Source: a virus
Strand: one strand, 5' to 3'
Length of the DNA stretch: 64,000 bases
IMG/VR virus record: IMGVR_UViG_3300003177_000020
Span: 1 to 64,000 of that record
Both the position numbers and the translations under genes were made by a program. Shown here in pieces: positions 16,454 to 58,072 of this stretch. Position 1 is the stretch's first letter; each line of letters starts with the position of its first letter. The notes under the pieces were generated by a model. It saw only the letters and a program-made list of their open reading frames with translations, had not been told where the DNA came from and ran no database searches.

Positions 16454-17641
16454 ATGTCTGAAAAAATTACACGAAAACGAAGGCGACGTGCGCCTTCAAA
16501 GCCTCAAGTTTCTCCTATTCAGAAACTCCGCAATGCCCTTCGTGGCATGTTGATCAATCGTGATCAAGAAATCGATGGACTTCTGACAGCATTATTGGCG
16601 CAAGAGCATGTGTTGTTGCTAGGAATGCACGGTACTGCAAAGTCAGCACTTACCGAAACAATGTGTCGATCTGTGGATGGGATGGCATACTTTTCATGGC
16701 TGATGTCAAAATTCACAGTGCCAGAAGAATTGTTTGGAGCATTTAGCCTCAAGGCATTACAAGATGATCGTTTCGAACGGGTAACACACGGCAAAATGCC
16801 TGAAGCTGAGATTGTCTTTTTGGATGAAATTTTCAAGGCGAACTCCAGCATACTCAACAATCTGCTGACGATTATCAATGAGCGAAAGTTTGCGAATGGC
16901 ACACACACGATCAAAGTACCATTACAGACTGTTGTTGGCGCATCAAATGAATTGCCTGAAGGTGCTGAACTGGCAGCGTTGTATGATCGATTCATGTTGC
17001 GATTTTGGGTAAAGCCATTATCGACCAGATCACACCGCAGAAAACTGCTTATGCTGGATTCAAAAAAAGTTGCTGCCATTTTCAATTCAGGGAAAATTAC
17101 AAAAGATGAATTGGAATTGGAACAAACAGCAGCAGCGCAAGTTGATATCTCAAACAGCATTGGGATTATTTTGGACGTTCAAGAAGCCTTGCAGCGTGAG
17201 GGGTATGTTGCAAGTGATCGTCGGTGGCGTAAGAGTCTGAGCATTTTGAAAGCCTATGCGCATTTACAAGGATCAAATAAAGTGCGAAACGAACACTTGA
17301 TCATACTTGCAGATGTGATGTGGGAAAAACCAGAAGATCGGGATGTGATTATTGAGTTGATTCGTAGGGTTGCAATTCCAGAACGTGCAAAAGTGGATGG
17401 AATTTTAAATGCAGCCAAAGAACAAATTGCAGAACTCCCCATTGGAAGTCGGGATATACCAGAAGAAAAGCGCAGCGCATATTTTGGACAGGCTACACGG
17501 ATCAACGCAGATCTTACAAAACAAATCGCAGAGCTTGCAAAACTCGAAGAAGATTATGCGCATGAAGCGATTCAAGAATTGGAAGATATGAAAATCACTG
17601 TTCGGGATTTTGCATCATTTGTTTCTGGATTTGCAATCTGA
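16454..17641 (+). CDS. MoxR/RavA-family AAA+ ATPase
   Basis: GMHGTAKS, FLDEIFKANSSILNNLL, GASNELP, ALYDRF and SDRRW. Confidence 0.9.
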   Translation: MSEKITRKRRRRAPSKPQVSPIQKLRNALRGMLINRDQEIDGLLTALLAQEHVLLLGMHGTAKSALTETMCRSVDGMAYFSWLMSKFTVPEELFGAFSLKALQDDRFERVTHGKMPEAEIVFLDEIFKANSSILNNLLTIINERKFANGTHTIKVPLQTVVGASNELPEGAELAALYDRFMLRFWVKPLSTRSHRRKLLMLDSKKVAAIFNSGKITKDELELEQTAAAQVDISNSIGIILDVQEALQREGYVASDRRWRKSLSILKAYAHLQGSNKVRNEHLIILADVMWEKPEDRDVIIELIRRVAIPERAKVDGILNAAKEQIAELPIGSRDIPEEKRSAYFGQATRINADLTKQIAELAKLEEDYAHEAIQELEDMKITVRDFASFVSGFAI

Positions 17642-22775: not shown

Positions 22776-25350
22776 ATGAAACCGTCAAAGCCTGTATTCC
22801 TTGAGACAAGACCTCGTATTCCTGAACAGCATGATTGCTCTAAATGCCGACTGCACCGCAAAGTTGATGTGCCTTGCATGGATACATTATGGCGTGGTAA
22901 TGGTGCTATTTTGGCAGTCGGTGTGAATCCAGATCCTACAGATGATAAAGAGGGACTTCCGTTTTCTGGTGTGAAAGGAAAAAAGCTCGCATACTGCGCG
23001 GATCTGGCAGGTGTAGATGTTGAACAAATATCCCTTACAAATGTGGTGCGTTGTGCTATTGCAGGAAAAACCAAACCTAAAAAAGATCAATTGGTGGCTT
23101 GCGGTGGATACTTGCAATTTGAGATTTTTACAAAAAAACCAAAAGTGATCCTCGCTATGGGTGATCACGCTGCACAGCTTCTTTGTCCAGACTGGAATTA
23201 CACGGTGGATGTGTTGGGTAAGGATAAGCGTCAAAAAAAGAAACTCAAAGAATGGCGCGGATACCCTCAACGCTACACATACGAGGCTGCTGTAGATGGG
23301 AAGTATTACACACACACATGCTGGGTGATCCCGACATTCCATCCAAAATATTGTCTATCTAGTTGGGAACAAGATCCAATTTTAGCTTTCGATTTGAAAA
23401 CAGCATTTGATTATGTCAGTGGTGTTGAAAGCATTGTGAATCCAAATACAAAGATCACCGTGTATCGGGATCTTGCAAGCATTGAATCTTTGTTTTTGTA
23501 TCTGAAACAGAAGAAAACATATGTGCTGGATTTGGAAACAACAGGGTTGGATTTTAACAAAGACGAGATCATCAACATTTGTTTTTGCGCAGAAGAAGGC
23601 GATGCACATGTGATCCCATTGCTAAGTACATGCACTCCTGATATTCGGTATTCAAATTTTAATGAATGCGAGATCGAAGAACTGCGTAGCAAATTAGTGG
23701 ATCTATTTCTGCAAACGGAACTCATAGGTGCAAACATCAAATTTGACATCAAGTTTATGCGCACGTTTTTAGGTGGGTTCAACTCGTGGCGTATCTTTGC
23801 AGACACACAAATCATGCACCACATCGTACAGGAAAATCATCCTCACAATTTGAATTTTCTTACACAGTTTTATTTACGCTGGGAAAAATACGATGCTGAA
23901 ATTGATCATTTCAAAAAGCTGGATGAATTGAATTTATCCTATGCTCCCGAAGATTTGGTTTCCCGCTATGGTGGCACAGATGTCGATGGTACTTTGCGGG
24001 TGTATAATATTCTCAAAAAGATCATAGAAGATAAAAAACTCACTAAGGTCTTTCGTATTGAAATGGGGCTGTTGCTTCCTCTCGCAGATTTGGAGTGGGT
24101 GGGTGTTCATGCTTCAAGATCAACACTTTCAGATTTGGCTATTCGGTACAAAAAAGAAAAAGAAAAAAGTATCAAATACCTGAAGCGAAAGCATCGCGAG
24201 ATATTTGGAGTTGATGCATCTGAAACATTCAACCCTAACAGCAACGAAACAAAGAGTGGGCAGTATATGCTGGACAAGTTGGTGTTGAAAGATCTGGTTG
24301 TGAAAGGTGGCGTTCCTGCAACCATCGCAAAGCATGTGCAGCTGATCCGAAAATACACCAAATACATCTCAACCTATTTAGAGGGTAAGGATGGTGATGG
24401 TGGCATCCTAAAACGAATATCATCTGTAGATCGCATACATCCAGACTACAATATCACGGGTGCGCGGACTGGACGCCTTACAGAAAAGGTGATGGCCTGA
24501 CAATCCTGAAACAGATGTGTTTTTGAGTGTGGATTATTCCAAAATGGAATTACGGGTTATGGCTTGGCTTGCGAATGAAAAATTGATGCTTGACGAGTTG
24601 CAATCGGATATTGATTTGCATACCAAGATGGCGGTCACTGCGAGGCTTATGCGTAATCCTACGGACGAGGAATATTATGCGATCTCTCCTGACGTAACAT
24701 CAAATGAACGTGCGATTGCAAAAGGTGCAAATTTTGGCATTCCATACGGTCGCGGTGCAGGTTCCATTGTTGCTGAGAATCCTAATTCATTCCCTGCGAA
24801 AATGAAGCACTGGGATCGCATCAAACAGGTTGATCGGATCATTGATGCCTACTATGAAAAATATCCAAACATTTATTCATACATGGAAAAGCAAAAAAGG
24901 ATTGCACATAAACGCATGTGGTTGCGCTCATCACAGACAGGCAGAATAAGAAACCTGTATGGTATGCGTTGGTTCAAATCGGAATTTGCAGAAGACTTGG
25001 ATAAATTTGAGAAAAGATTGATGCAAGGAGATATTGAACACATTGAACGGGAAGCCCAAAATTATCAGATACAAGAAATCGCTTCATCTATTTTGGCAAC
25101 ACAAACACGCATTGTTTACGATGCAATCCAAACACGACAACTAGGCATTCGGAATTTCAGGATCGTGCTAAGTATTCACGATCAACTTTTATTCAACTGC
25201 CACCGTGAGGACATTCAAAAAGCAGAAGTATTCGCACGGCAGCATATGGAAATTGTTCTGCCGAAAACAAAAAAGCAGAAGTACGAAATACCGATAACAG
25301 TTGATTCCGTGGTGCAGCGGGTATGGGGAGAGAACGAATACAATGACTGA
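22776..25350 (+). CDS. polA: Family A DNA polymerase with N-terminal UDG-like domain and 3'-5' exonuclease (broken near 24497; probable in-frame gap near 24243)
   Basis: UDG4-like CxxCxL, TNVVRC, PTFHP; Exo I DLETTG; TGRL; motif A DYSKMELR, motif B RAIAKGANFGIPYG, motif C IHDQ. Confidence 0.92.
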
Positions 25351-45038: not shown

Positions 45039-45092
45039 AGCTTACGATTGATCACGTACACTTACAAGATTTATTTATAAAAAGTTAGTAAC
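45039..45092 (-). promoter_or_regulatory. Early sigma70-type promoter (GATC in spacer)
   Basis: On the minus strand: CTAACTTTTTATAAATAAATC-TTGTAA-N17-TAAGCT. Confidence 0.75.
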
Positions 45093-45111: not shown

Positions 45112-45399
45112 ATGACACACAGAATGTTACGATTTGAAGAAATGATCTCCGAGATCGCATCCACAACGGGAGCCACAAAAAAGGAAGCTGCCAAAGTGAT
45201 CAACGCTTACATTGATCTTATAGATCGGGAACTGCAAGAAGGAAATGATGTCCGCTTGAAAGGGATCGGCAGATTTTGTGTTCGCACTTCCAAATCCAAG
45301 AAAGTGATCAACAAATATTTTGGTGTGAATCGCACCATACCACCGAAGAAATACATACATTTTCAATGCAGTGAAAAAATGCTGCGAAGAATCAACTAG
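45112..45399 (+). CDS. HU/IHF-family DNA-binding protein
   Basis: IASTTGATKKEA, GNDVRLKGIGRF and IPPKK.IHF..SE.M. Confidence 0.85.
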   Translation: MTHRMLRFEEMISEIASTTGATKKEAAKVINAYIDLIDRELQEGNDVRLKGIGRFCVRTSKSKKVINKYFGVNRTIPPKKYIHFQCSEKMLRRIN

Positions 45400-45409
45400 G
45401 TATTAGATC

Positions 45410-46283
45410 TTAGGAGATTCCTCGGTCGACAATTGGTGTCGATTCTTCGCAGCCGATCTTTGTTGGTGGCAGCCAGTATAGCACACTTTCTTTTCTTCCT
45501 TTTCCTATGCGGTAGGTGTGCCAGTGTGCGCGTCTCCAATGTGCTGCCTTTTGACTTCCGTTGCTGTTGCTATGTTGCGCAGTTCCTGTGGTGTTTTTGA
45601 TATCGCTACCACGTCTATACCCAACATCGAAGCTGACGACTGCGCTTCATCCTGTGTTTGATATCTGCATTTTTGCAGCAAATATAAAGAAGCAAGTTGA
45701 TCCCAATGTTTGCGATCTTGAAGATCGGTTCAAACACAGATCCATCGTAATTTACACCACCATCACGAATGCCTGTGATGATTGCCTCTTTGATTCCCAT
45801 ACCAGAAATAAATGGAATGAATAGTGGCAAAGGAACTCCCGTTTCAAAAAAGACTGTGATACGCAATTCCTCTTTATAATTCAATGTGTTCATGTGATCA
45901 TCAAACCAGTCAATCGAACACAAGAATCCTTCAATGTTTTGTTTCCCATATGGTATGAAGATTGCCCATTCTGGCATCTTGTACAGCAGTTCAAATGGGA
46001 GTGGTTTATTCCCCAGTTCAGTAGGCACAATCTTACCGATCAAATCTTCCTTGATCGTGTAAATGCCCTTTGTATACCACCAATTGAGATATGTGGAATA
46101 TTCCCATGCGTCTCGTAATTTCTGATTGTAAGCTTTCGCATATTCCACACCAAAACTGATGGGGAATAAAACATGTTCGGGTATGTTATCGAATTGGTTG
46201 TCGCGCACGGCTTGCATTGCCAGTGCTGCAAAGTGCTTGTTGTTATCAATATGGGTTCGAACTGTGGAGAGAAATTTACGCAT
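45410..46283 (-). CDS. acrVA2: AcrVA2-family (FinQ-related) anti-CRISPR protein; frame break near 45643
   Basis: W.YTKGIY, MPEWAIFI, IEGF and LLYICCKNADI; second frame FDVGYRRGSDI...HWRRAHWHTY...YWLPP ending at TAA 45410. Confidence 0.8.
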
Positions 46284-46332
46284 GAATCACTCCTTTTGAG
46301 TGTTGGTGATGGTTGCCTGTATGATCTTTTTG

Positions 46333-46668
46333 TTACACAAGATCCGTGATATCTACATCACAGTCAAAGAAGTTTTCTTCCAAAAATGCCAGTCTGTTTC
46401 GCACTTGCTGGCGTCGCTCTTCTTGTTCTTCTTTGAGTAAAATCTTGTTGTATGTTTTGTCGGAGCAGATTGCCTCGACTTCATTTTGAAGTATTTGTTT
46501 GTGGTTCATGTAGTAAGATGTGCGCTCCCATGCGCTTGCGCTTTCTGCCTCACGCTTCAATTCTTCTGCTCGTATTTTCAAGCTTGGAACTTCCCTGATG
46601 GCGAGGTTGTAGATCCATTCAAAGTTTGTTTTTGCTTTTTCTTCTTTGTAGTTTTTGTAGCTGTTCAT
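46333..46668 (-). CDS. Small helical protein upstream of acrVA2
   Basis: AAGGAG RBS; first gene after the 46.7 kb promoter. Confidence 0.65.
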   Translation of the reverse strand: MNSYKNYKEEKAKTNFEWIYNLAIREVPSLKIRAEELKREAESASAWERTSYYMNHKQILQNEVEAICSDKTYNKILLKEEQEERRQQVRNRLAFLEENFFDCDVDITDLV

Positions 46669-46713
46669 CTCTGTTCTCCTTGGTGCGTTTCGCACTGTGT
46701 TTGTTATGTTTAT

Positions 46714-46766
46714 ATAGTAGAGATGATCACTTCATTTTACAAGAAATAAATAAAAATAGTTAGCAT
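46714..46766 (-). promoter_or_regulatory. Early sigma70-type promoter (GATC in spacer)
   Basis: On the minus strand: TTGTAA-N17-TACTAT with UP-like block. Confidence 0.8.
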
Positions 46767-46816
46767 CTATCCGACATCTCTACATTTTTTATGCGTGAAA
46801 ATACACAGAATGATCT

Positions 46817-49364
46817 TTATTTCAAAATTGCACGGCATAATTTGATCCGATCATCGGCATTCATAACACTTTTGTTTTGTATCAAGTGTGAACATCTTCT
46901 AATTTCTGCATCCATATTATTGCGACGCAGATGCTCACCAACCATAATCAAAACAGCAAATGCCATAGCGAAAAAGAATAAACCAATTGTAAATACAATC
47001 TTGAAGTCCTCATTTACAAACGGCATTGTATCCTCCTTGTGTTCCAACAAACAACGATTCAAACACAACTTTTTCAACCACAACGAACATGCCGTTGCCA
47101 GATATAATGTAATGATCTGGAAGCACAGACTTCACACCGACCAGTTTTGATTTTATTTTAACAGTGTACGCACGGTGTATTTCCAAACCCCAAGAAACAC
47201 GAGTTTCACTCCGTTCAGCATAAATCCCATGCCTCCCCAAAAATTTAATTGTGTAGTACAAAGATTCATTTGTGTTTTCAAAAAGTACCACTTCAACATT
47301 TTCTCGTGTACAAATCATATTCAATCACTCAACTCTGTGATCATTCCAATTTTTGCGTAATACAAAATTCTGTTTCTCAGTGTTTCAAATTCTTCTGTGG
47401 TCTTCAGTGAAATAGCCGTCTTGACATCATCTAGGCTGTACCATTCTGCCAGAGTAACCTCCACGAGCAGCCCTTCAACACGTTTGTGCTTCACATATTG
47501 CGCAATCATGTGGCGTTTTTGTTGTAGCTCTTCTTTGATCTGCCACCCTGTATCTTTCCATTTATAATCAAAGATTTTTTTGCCATTCCTTTCAATTTCT
47601 GGATCTGATGGTGTGCAGAAATTTGGATCTTCGCCATAGCCAGCGACTAGAACACGCGCAGCATCCATGAAACTTCGTGCTAGGTATCCACCTTCTTCTG
47701 CATCGTCTCCATCCAGTTTCATCACCTGCTCTTCACTGTCGAATGCCCACTTGTAACCGTCTTTATCCGTGAACTTGATTTTCATTGATCCACTCCTTGA
47801 TGGTGCTGCTGTTGAAATTGAAATTCTTCCCAAAAATAGTGATTCCGTGCTTGTTGAATGTCGCCATGATCGCGATCACTTTTGCAGTTTGGTTGAACAA
47901 TTTTGCAATTGTACCTTTCTTTGTTTTTCCCGTGTGATCGCCATACATCATGAGATCGGATCGACTGGCAATATCTTTGATCAATTCTTCTTTGTTGTTT
48001 TCCAGCCAATCCCAGTGCTTGTCGAGTTCTTCTTTCGATTTGCACGCCATCAATTCCATGCCGTTCATTTGGACTGCCATTTCGATTGACATGATAAACA
48101 GTTTTGATCTGGTATCCAGATGTGAACTAAACTCTCGTGCTGCTTCTTGAAGTTGCGCTTGCGTGTGCTTTCTTTTGAATCTTCTCTTTGCCATTTTGAC
48201 ACCTATTTTATGTTGTGTTTGTACTCGTGCTGATCCATACGATATCGGATAATTGGTATCCCATAATTATTCATTTTGTGAGCTGACAACAATCCTGCGT
48301 CACCATAAGTTTGAAGTAAAAAGTCATTCAGAGATATACCGTCTGGACATTTGAGATCATCATTAAATTTGCACACGTCGAATCCATATTGAATTGAAAA
48401 GTAATCTTTCAACTTCAGATCAAATATGTTTTCAAATTCTTTTTTTTCTTTTTCTGTTGGAAAATAACGCTTAGGCGTCTCTTGTATTTGTTTATTTGGG
48501 GAATCATCCGCTTGCATTCTCCTGAATCTTCTCTTTGCCATTGCAGCATCCCTTCAAGATTCTTTTTTATCCGCAAATGTACACAGGTATTCAGTGCGGA
48601 ATAATGGCAGTTCTTTCATTTCATGCGTTGCAACAAATCTGTTCTGTTCAACTGAAAAATGAAAGTGTATTGGTTTGATATTATTCTCTTTGAAACAACG
48701 ATCACACACATGGATGTGTCCGTTGATCTTATCATCAATAACACCTGTCACATGTTTCGTTTCCATTGTTGCTGGAACTGTAGCACCGCAAAGATCACAT
48801 TTCATCATGCCAAACTCCTATGGCTTCAAACGTCAAACTCTCCATCCAGCAGGTGCGGGAATAACCCACGCAGACTTGACTCACATCTTCTGTTCATGGT
48901 GTCCAAAATATTTTTTGCACTGCTATCCGACACATCAACTTCATTTTCTGATATTTCCTTGAAACGGTCTATTACACACACAGCATATTCTCTGAGTGCA
49001 TCGTATAGCTTGCTTGTGGTATTTGCCTGTTGTGAATAAATCAGCATCGCAGCAGCAAGTTCTCTGGATGTTTTTTTCTTTAAATCTTCTTCAAAAAACC
49101 CAAGAACATCTTTGACCAAGTTGATCCGATACGTCGTTCATTTTGAGTCTTGATTTTTGTTTCAATGGCATACATTCGTGTGCGTAATTTTGATGTGTAA
49201 GTTCCGATCTCCTTTGATGAAAAATAAAAACCGACAATACCTTTTTTGAATGCTAACTGTTCGAGATCGCTGATAACAGATTCAAGTTGACCAAATGGCA
49301 CAAACTCTTTCAGTAATATGTATAGCATCGCTGTTACTGGATCTTTTGTGTGCTTGTCTTCCAT
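46817..49364 (-). CDS. Operon of small hypothetical genes (46817..47026, 47010..47324, 47321..47785, 47763..48194, 48203..48541, 48554..48808, 48826..49119, 49080..49364)
   Basis: Overlapping or coupled minus-strand ORFs; starts approximate. Confidence 0.55.
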
Positions 49365-56067: not shown

Positions 56068-57003
56068 ATGAATGATCGAATGGGATCACCTTTATGTTTT
56101 CCAGAATTGTTGATCAAAAAAGTAAAAGGAATCATCCGATTATTTGAGACTGGCAGATTAGAAAGCAATTATGATCTTCTTGTGGTGCTGCCAGATGGTG
56201 CAGGGATCACATTTGGGGTTGAGCAGACAACAGAAAACAGCGGTGGTTTGTATCGATTGCTGCAAGTCTATTGTAATCTTGGTGGCAAGTTTGCAGATTT
56301 ATTTGAACCTTACATGCGATTACTTTATGGCAGCCCAAAAGGGAAGAAGTGGGCATTGACCAACAATGATGAGTTTAAGGGTCTGCTGACAAGAGCGGTT
56401 CATTATGATTCGATCATGATAGCTGCACAGGATTTGTATTTTGAAAAAGAATACATGCTGCCAGCCAGTATTATCAGTGGACAGTATGCTCTCACAATGC
56501 CTTTGTCTTTTGCGGTTATTTATGATTCGTGTATCCATTCTGGTGTTGGGGATTACTTGTCAGAAGAACCACCAAAAAAAGGCACTCCTTGGCATTTGTG
56601 GCGATTTGAAGACAAATTGGATGCTGAATGCGAAGAACATGAAGAAATGGCTTCTATCGGCTCGTGTGAAGTTTTGGCTGGTGATGATTCCGAACTTCCA
56701 GATTTTAAATGGGATGATGACGAAGAAGAAAAAGCATTCATTTCTGGGTACGTGCAGTACAGATTGAATTGGTTGAAAAATCACAACAGGGAAGCTATCC
56801 GAGCGACAGCCTATCGCATGTTTGCTTTTCTCAGAATGATTGAAGCAGATAACTGGGATTTGGAATCTCCTGTTGAAGTTCATATGGCGAGGAATGGTGG
56901 ATTTTTGAAGAACCCACCTTTGATTACAGATGGCAGTGTTGCAGGTATTCAAGTTGTGCTTGATGAGCTTATGTGTTCCGATGACGATTATGGTGTGGCG
57001 TGA
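56068..57003 (+). CDS. Chitosanase (GH46)/lysozyme-fold endolysin
   Basis: IIRLFETG, DGAGITFG..QTT..SG.L, AAQD..F...Y..PA and AVIYDS.IHSG. Confidence 0.75.
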   Translation: MNDRMGSPLCFPELLIKKVKGIIRLFETGRLESNYDLLVVLPDGAGITFGVEQTTENSGGLYRLLQVYCNLGGKFADLFEPYMRLLYGSPKGKKWALTNNDEFKGLLTRAVHYDSIMIAAQDLYFEKEYMLPASIISGQYALTMPLSFAVIYDSCIHSGVGDYLSEEPPKKGTPWHLWRFEDKLDAECEEHEEMASIGSCEVLAGDDSELPDFKWDDDEEEKAFISGYVQYRLNWLKNHNREAIRATAYRMFAFLRMIEADNWDLESPVEVHMARNGGFLKNPPLITDGSVAGIQVVLDELMCSDDDYGVA

Positions 57004-57172: not shown

Positions 57173-58072
57173 CTAAAGAAACAATTGAAGAATTGAGAAA
57201 TGCGGTGATTGGAGAAATGATCTCCATTCGTTTTCTGTCATGTTGTGTGGTTTAGTTGTTTGTTTGATTTCTTCTTTGTGTCTCGTCAGTATTTTCCTTA
57301 AAAACTGCAATTCCATCTTTGAAAACTTTTCAGCTTCTTTGGAATAATCAATCCATGCCTCGTAGGATAATGGCATCCATGCGTTAGCGATTATCGCGAT
57401 AGCTTCAGCAATATCTCTTATTTCTTTTTGTGCGTGTTGTGATGTACGCAGTTTCAAAAAGTGAAACATGTTCCTTGCTTTCATCGCCACAACAATGTCT
57501 GTGTAATTTGCGAGTGGTAGATCAATTCTGGCTTGTTCTCTTGCAACTCCGAGTTCTAATCTTTCTGTGTAAATAGCATCAATTTCTTTGTGCAGACTTT
57601 CTTGTTGCCGTGTGAGTTCTTCGCCTATTTCTTGGTCGATGAAACCATCCGATCCTTGTTTTGAATCTTCGCTTTGCATTCTCCATTCATGCGGTTGGAT
57701 CACTTTTTTTAGGTCGATGGCAGGTCTGTATCGTGTGGAGTATTCATTCAGAGAAAATGTTCTGTGCCTTACGAATTGACGCATGATATCCATTGGTAGT
57801 CTGATTTGCAGCATGATTGTTGGCATCTCAAATGGAGTGCCATGTTCTTCACGCATCAGCCTCCTAATGAGTCTGCGATCTTGTGTTCTTGTTCTGTTTT
57901 CAGTGCTGCGATGTCCAACAAAACAATTTCTGGCAGCACGGACAACATGTTCATCTCCACCCATCCAGTCCACAACTTTGACGTATCCATGATCTCCGAT
58001 TGCTATGGCGTGTTCTTCCAGAGTTTTGAGTTGTTTGATGTTTGCATATTTAGGATATTTGTTCATTTTCAT
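57173..58072 (-). CDS. thyX: Flavin-dependent thymidylate synthase
   Basis: HGTPFE, RQFVRHRTFSLNEYSTRY, REQAR and HAQKEIR. Confidence 0.95.
   Translation of the reverse strand: MKMNKYPKYANIKQLKTLEEHAIAIGDHGYVKVVDWMGGDEHVVRAARNCFVGHRSTENRTRTQDRRLIRRLMREEHGTPFEMPTIMLQIRLPMDIMRQFVRHRTFSLNEYSTRYRPAIDLKKVIQPHEWRMQSEDSKQGSDGFIDQEIGEELTRQQESLHKEIDAIYTERLELGVAREQARIDLPLANYTDIVVAMKARNMFHFLKLRTSQHAQKEIRDIAEAIAIIANAWMPLSYEAWIDYSKEAEKFSKMELQFLRKILTRHKEEIKQTTKPHNMTENEWRSFLQSPHFSILQLFL

Follow-up and report, generated by a model that had tools for sequence, protein, structure and literature searches.

The locus between positions 45410 and 46766 of an uncultured viral genome raises two questions: whether the phage carries a broken gene of the AcrVA2 anti-CRISPR family whose second half is hidden in another reading frame, and whether that gene belongs to an anti-CRISPR operon, as an earlier note on this DNA had proposed. 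The stretch of DNA that we analysed (64,000 nucleotides, hereafter the window) is the opening 64 kb of a linear virus record in IMG/VR that runs to 80,032 nt and is estimated to be 84% complete; its source is an uncultured tailed phage of about 80 kb. The window encodes baseplate proteins, a helicase, a primase-helicase, a family-A DNA polymerase, an SbcC-like protein, a ParB-methyltransferase fusion, the large terminase, the portal, and ThyX, the flavin-dependent thymidylate synthase (57176-58072, minus strand). The large terminase is at most 25% identical to any terminase from deposited or cultured phages, which places this phage remote from known phages. A blastn search of the locus against deposited phages returned zero matches, and scans of viral contigs and metagenome contigs found no near relative.

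We first describe the locus as it stands in the record. A minus-strand ORF of 222 aa (P0001; 46283..45615) ends, in translation, with ...KHRMKRSRQLRCWV and a stop codon, frame 1 of this strand terminating as ...KNADIKHRMKRSRQLRCWV at 45615. Shifted by one base, the next frame stays open between 45646 and a stop at 45410-45412 and reads SAVVSFDVGYRRGSDI...AAHWRRAHWHTY...YWLPP...GIS, and the two frames share 31 nt (45615-45646). The translation thus shows both the early end and the continuation to 45410 that the earlier note had described, including the residues quoted there. The N-terminal part of the gene occupies 45641..46283 on the minus strand (214 codons and the first base of codon 215), with the false stop of its frame at 45615-45617, and the C-terminal part occupies 45410..45640 on the same strand (76 codons and the stop), out of frame in the record. 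When compared with phrog_6160, a profile of 322 positions, the N-terminal part matched positions 27-237 (E 2.6e-15) and the C-terminal part positions 254-318 (E 3.5e-12), and these collinear matches were reproduced by a DNA-level search. Because both pieces match one PHROG collinearly, the out-of-frame continuation is not a product of chance, and on the evidence of these alignments these pieces together make up a single gene. The split copy is the only copy of the family in the whole phage. An HxRxxH motif (HWRRAHWH; 45518-45541, minus strand) lies 3' of the break and was aligned to HIRRGHWH of the AcrVA2 structure 7ci1_A. The gene call of the record is the 222-aa N-terminal part without HxRxxH, so that automated annotation does miss the half that the earlier note had called catalytic, as had been anticipated there.

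The nature of the break was then assessed by comparison with intact relatives. Compared with P0002, an intact 304-aa homologue that is 66% identical, the window is without a basic linker of 15 residues between KHRxKR and VVxFxVGY; the missing linker amounts to 44 nt, since one base is retained at the junction. The stretch was present in the runs of one sample only (X1/X2), and the Logan contigs from these runs (80,803 nt, depth of about 31), which were independently built, contained 44 extra letters exactly between 45640 and 45641 and were otherwise identical to the window over 45300-46800. It was noted that the 44-nt difference falls exactly at the junction predicted from P0002, in a comparison made between assembled contigs, which drop minority variants. 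A 305-aa protein, P0153, was found in the same 90%-identity cluster as P0001, with JGI/IMG and Logan sources and a longest contig of 80,852 nt. Its residues 1-214 and 230-305 are 100% identical to the two halves in the window, with KPRSKANKAVRPSKN, the 15 codons absent from the record at 45640..45641, inserted at the junction. The read-through translation of the window (P0152) shows the same 15-residue gap against P0153, and P0002 carries a 15-residue linker at the same place. Since P0153 matches both halves plus the linker, the gene is intact in other assemblies of the phage, and its HxRxxH motif, which the 80,032-nt record separates from the reading frame of the N-terminal part, is in frame in P0153. 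The suggestion that the gene itself is frameshifted and hidden was therefore not borne out: the Logan contigs hold 44 more bases, and an intact 305-aa protein exists.

A second broken gene in the same record bears on how this gap should be read. The DNA polymerase (22776-25347, plus strand), a family A enzyme with an N-terminal UDG-like domain, is represented by two fragments, one of 574 aa (P0172; 22776-24497, plus strand) that matches a polymerase PHROG and one of 268 aa (P0173; 24544-25347, plus strand) that matches the following part of it. The 80,032-nt contig is the sole source of both fragments; the other contigs carry P0174, an intact polymerase of 887 aa from the same cluster. Measured against P0174, the window has two gaps here: one of 48 nt, at the junction codon 24246-24248, preserves the frame, and one of 41 nt, located between 24494 and 24502 and shortly ahead of catalytic motif A, disrupts it. 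A genome with such a polymerase lesion would not replicate. As an essential polymerase is broken here and intact in the other assembly, the record is defective; moreover, the other contigs exceed it in length by 771-820 nt. The non-viable polymerase lesion, together with this shortfall, which would fit many such omissions, led us to regard the 44-nt gap as very probably a defect of the 80,032-nt record. The shortfall further makes other omissions, and false pseudogenes, likely elsewhere in it. That several omissions of 41-48 nt create false pseudogenes is a warning to annotators of this IMG/VR record.

Two other explanations of the split gene were weighed against a defect of the record. The 44-bp loss could be a genuine deletion allele, a natural knock-out circulating alongside the intact allele in a sub-population or another sample. 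De Bruijn assemblers seldom invent deletions, the junction has no flanking direct repeat that would explain a collapse by the assembler, and the truncated P0001 and the intact P0153 both have JGI/IMG sources, all of which speak for such an allele. However, the 48- and 41-nt omissions also break the essential polymerase that is intact in the other assembly, and the shorter length of the record fits many such losses. Both halves are moreover 100% identical to the intact allele, so the truncated form shows no decay, and we consider a circulating deletion allele unlikely. A programmed +1 ribosomal frameshift, by which the split gene would be expressed and functional, is made geometrically possible by the 31-nt overlap of the two frames (45615-45646). 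The homology, however, changes frame exactly at 45640/45641, where the 15 linker residues are gone, and not near the stop codon; a slippery or stop-adjacent shift site is absent from the sequence, and the family typically has 300-360 aa in one frame. Because the frame switch of the homology coincides with the gap and single-frame intact alleles exist, programmed frameshifting was excluded, with a probability that we regard as negligible. We therefore favor the reading that the phage of about 80 kb has one intact 305-aa AcrVA2/FinQ-family gene and that the apparent frameshift reflects 44 bases missing from the record, with a probability of about 0.8.

We sought to place the intact protein among known families. 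The C-terminal part alone matched residues 255-314 of AcrVA2 7ci1_A in a phmmer search of PDB (E 0.008), and the same search with the N-terminal part alone gave no match. Residues 64-289 of the homologue P0002 aligned with residues 76-314 of 7ci1_A (E 1.6e-9). An exhaustive search with P0002 recovered 2,549 cluster representatives (50% identity) at E <=1e-3, typically of 300-360 aa, and 231 family loci were counted in species-representative genomes. Within this family, P0153 groups closely with P0002, and the two are less than 40% identical to all other members. A profile built from 53 cluster sequences plus the read-through of the window matched 7ci1_A in PDB with an E-value of 1.7e-43, positions 16-318 of 332 aligning with 10-319 of 323. 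The motifs that the earlier note had listed for AcrVA2 (W..GIY, LPDW, GF, LLWLC, IGxRLG, HIRRGHWH and WxP) follow one another in that order in the alignments that HMMER made to 7ci1_A. An AlphaFold2 model of intact P0153 (pLDDT 88, pTM 0.88) had AcrVA2 7ci2_A as its best Foldseek match in PDB (E 2.6e-14, TM 0.66), and the matches at E <=0.001 were 7ci2_A, 7ci1_A and 7ci1_B only (TM 0.63-0.67). A tblastn search of plasmids with P0153 found genes annotated as "finQ: protein FinQ" in E. coli and Salmonella, carried by conjugative plasmids, with 28% identity over residues 65-300 and E-values of 2e-12 to 5e-13.

Conservation of individual residues was also examined. H263, R265 and H268, the equivalents of AcrVA2 H286, R288 and H291, are invariant or nearly so in alignments of 53 and 69 sequences, and W68, the equivalent of AcrVA2 W79, is invariant across the family alignments. 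The position of AcrVA2 D89 is occupied by K78, followed by E79-D80, and the relative P0002 retains D. In AcrVA2, H286, R288 and H291 are required for the translation-dependent loss of cas12a mRNA, and function is moderately impaired by mutation of W79 or D89 (bioRxiv 10.1101/2022.11.29.518452). Identity to AcrVA2 and FinQ is approximately 20-28%. Since sequence, motif and predicted fold agree, the assignment of the gene as a distant member of the AcrVA2/FinQ family is well supported. The distant homology to AcrVA2 and the relationship to FinQ that the earlier note had put forward are thus upheld by the phrog_6160 collinearity, the 7ci1_A profile match, the shared fold and the plasmid finQ matches (E of about 1e-12), and the C-terminal half on its own already finds 7ci1_A. 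Searches of local Pfam and NCBIfam libraries assigned neither the two halves nor the intact relatives to a family, and the precomputed label PF26125 was mentioned in none of the papers searched.

Comparison with the known members shows both likeness and divergence. AcrVA2, a prophage protein of Moraxella bovoculi with the structures PDB 7CI1 and 7CI2, shares the predicted whole-length fold of P0153 (three domains in the crystal structure) in addition to the near full-length profile match, the motif order and the equivalent tryptophan and HxRxxH residues. The two proteins are of similar size (305 aa here, 322 aa in AcrVA2), and both are carried by phages. Identity is nevertheless only about 20%, the equivalent of D89 is a lysine, and the setting differs: a Moraxella prophage in one case and an uncultured phage of about 80 kb with its own replication module in the other, in which no acrVA1-like gene adjoins the family gene. 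FinQ is a fertility inhibition protein of IncI/F-like plasmids in E. coli and Salmonella, whereas P0153 is phage-borne; FinQ targets the F tra operon, which has no relevance for a phage, and the N-terminal residues of P0153 (approximately 60) are unaligned with FinQ. The third comparison is with PHROG 6160, a group of phage proteins without a functional name, which both halves match collinearly, while the P0153/P0002 pair is less than 40% identical to everything else. The gene, previously unnamed, is a divergent addition to a family that is known and very large. Since the wide distribution of this family on phages and plasmids, for the most part where Cas12a is absent, had already been established, membership as such adds little new biology. 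There are, however, 31 deposited phage genomes that carry phrog_6160 members, every one annotated "hypothetical protein", and these can now be recognized as still unlabelled members of the AcrVA2/FinQ family.

Upstream of the gene, the locus has the appearance of a small transcription unit. The leftward order is a promoter-like repeat, the orphan gene ORF111, and the family gene in second place. The promoter-like repeat (46700..46782, minus strand) comprises an invariant CTAACT, an A/T-rich tract, a -35 box TTGTAA (46737-46742), a 17-nt spacer with GATC in it and a -10 box TACTAT (46714-46719); in the other copies, too, the spacer usually contains GATC. The CTAACT 5' of the -35 box could be a regulator site. 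The element, of approximately 60-80 nt, recurs at 38.7k, 39.9k, 40.7k and 41.5k on the plus strand and at 45.0k on the minus strand. Its degenerate core was found in seven copies in the window, compared to 0 expected from shuffles (16365, 38741, 39979, 40766 and 41532 on the plus strand; 45063 and 46738 on the minus strand), each upstream of a gene in matching orientation; across the seven elements the -35 box reads TTGTA(A/T). One of these copies precedes an ATPase gene at 16454, and the copy at 45063-45088 (minus strand) lies just downstream of the two-gene unit. The promoter call is based on this recurrence and not on a generic promoter scan, in which the TTGTAA-N17-TACTAT site was not listed. 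Because the element recurs and is oriented upstream of genes, it is plausible that the two-gene unit has its own promoter. Of the early promoter that had been claimed for the unit, the recurrent promoter-like element stands, while the word "early" is an inference.

ORF111 and the family gene both have strong ribosome-binding sites of the AGGAG type, and the family gene is preceded by a recurrent CTCAAAAGGAGT ribosome-binding context (repeat families D12/D7). A search for a terminator after the family gene gave none that was convincing, the T tails of the candidates being weak. A short G+C-rich hairpin at 46681-46697 (CAGTGCGAAACGCACCA, minus strand) was noted in the predicted 5' leader directly before the ribosome-binding site of ORF111, and may be a leader structure.

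The first gene of the unit, ORF111 (46333..46668, minus strand), encodes a helical, highly charged protein of 111 aa, with the ribosome-binding site AAGGAG (46676-46681) 7 nt 5' of its ATG. Among 5.8 billion proteins, it matched itself and one other 111-aa protein at 72% identity. As this homologue has the same length, ORF111 is a real gene, otherwise an orphan. Searches of Pfam, PHROG and NCBIfam found no domain and no HTH in it, and a structure atlas search returned generic helical look-alikes only. With a crude ORF-based script, neither a homologue of ORF111 nor any conserved operon partner was detected beside 94 related family loci. ORF111 had been put forward as an anti-CRISPR candidate by association, a proposal that our results do not support: it comes down to adjacency, and none of the related loci repeats the pairing.

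Judged by homology, the intact protein would bind one particular polypeptide, probably during the emergence of that polypeptide from the ribosome, and would then bring about the loss of the corresponding mRNA by way of its conserved C-terminal HxRxxH region. This scheme is modelled on published accounts of AcrVA2 acting on Cas12a, where it has been described, and of FinQ acting on F transfer genes, where it has been suggested; FinQ, regarded as homologous to AcrVA2, reduces the mRNA of F transfer genes (bioRxiv 10.1101/2022.11.29.518452). The target need not be Cas12a. It is possible but unlikely that it is, since FinQ is at least as near a relative of the protein as AcrVA2 is, no host was obtained from the terminase, tRNAs or family matches in genomes, and members of the family occur in many different phyla. 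Genome matches to the family were at most 30% identical, and no tRNA genes were found in the window.

That the intact protein is a true anti-CRISPR which eliminates host cas12a mRNA, with ORF111 as a second one, would agree with the AcrVA2 homology including the essential HxRxxH motif, and with the position of the gene among small genes without assigned function behind a promoter of host type. Approximately 1,800 AcrVA2 orthologues on mobile elements are known, however, mostly without Cas12a, and AcrVA2 and FinQ diverge towards the N-terminus (bioRxiv 10.1101/2022.11.29.518452), with P0153 no further from FinQ than from AcrVA2. No Aca-type helix-turn-helix regulator was found adjoining the family gene, the only nearby DNA-binding gene being a convergent HU-like gene (45112-45399, plus strand), and a homologue of ORF111 stands beside 0 of the 94 related loci. 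We consider this reading quite unlikely, and the designation of the locus as an anti-CRISPR operon is unproven, with no Cas12a in evidence. Tentatively, and with less than even confidence, we suggest that the intact 305-aa protein may be a host-takeover or anti-defence factor that would use AcrVA2-type recognition of a nascent polypeptide and mRNA destruction against a target other than Cas12a. If this proves true, the poorly understood AcrVA2-type mechanism would gain a second specificity through the divergent N-terminal part of the protein. Together with its one relative, this phage marks out a divergent sub-branch of the family, and this sub-branch, preceded by a well-defined putative promoter, could serve for target discovery.

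The family gene sits within a block of small minus-strand genes without assigned function, from approximately 42 to 55 kb. The HU/IHF-like DNA-binding gene (Pfam Bac_DNA_binding, E 7e-19) is the sole plus-strand gene in this block and is convergent with the AcrVA2-like gene, their stops lying 10 nt apart. Further along, a glycoside hydrolase family 46-like protein, probably a lysin, was noted at 56068-57000 on the plus strand. Two small neighbours at 47766-48194 and 48206-48541, both on the minus strand, begin with MAKRRF(K/R)R, and a 30-nt repeat (family D3) spans the starts of both; these genes may be paralogues with an arginine-rich N-terminus.
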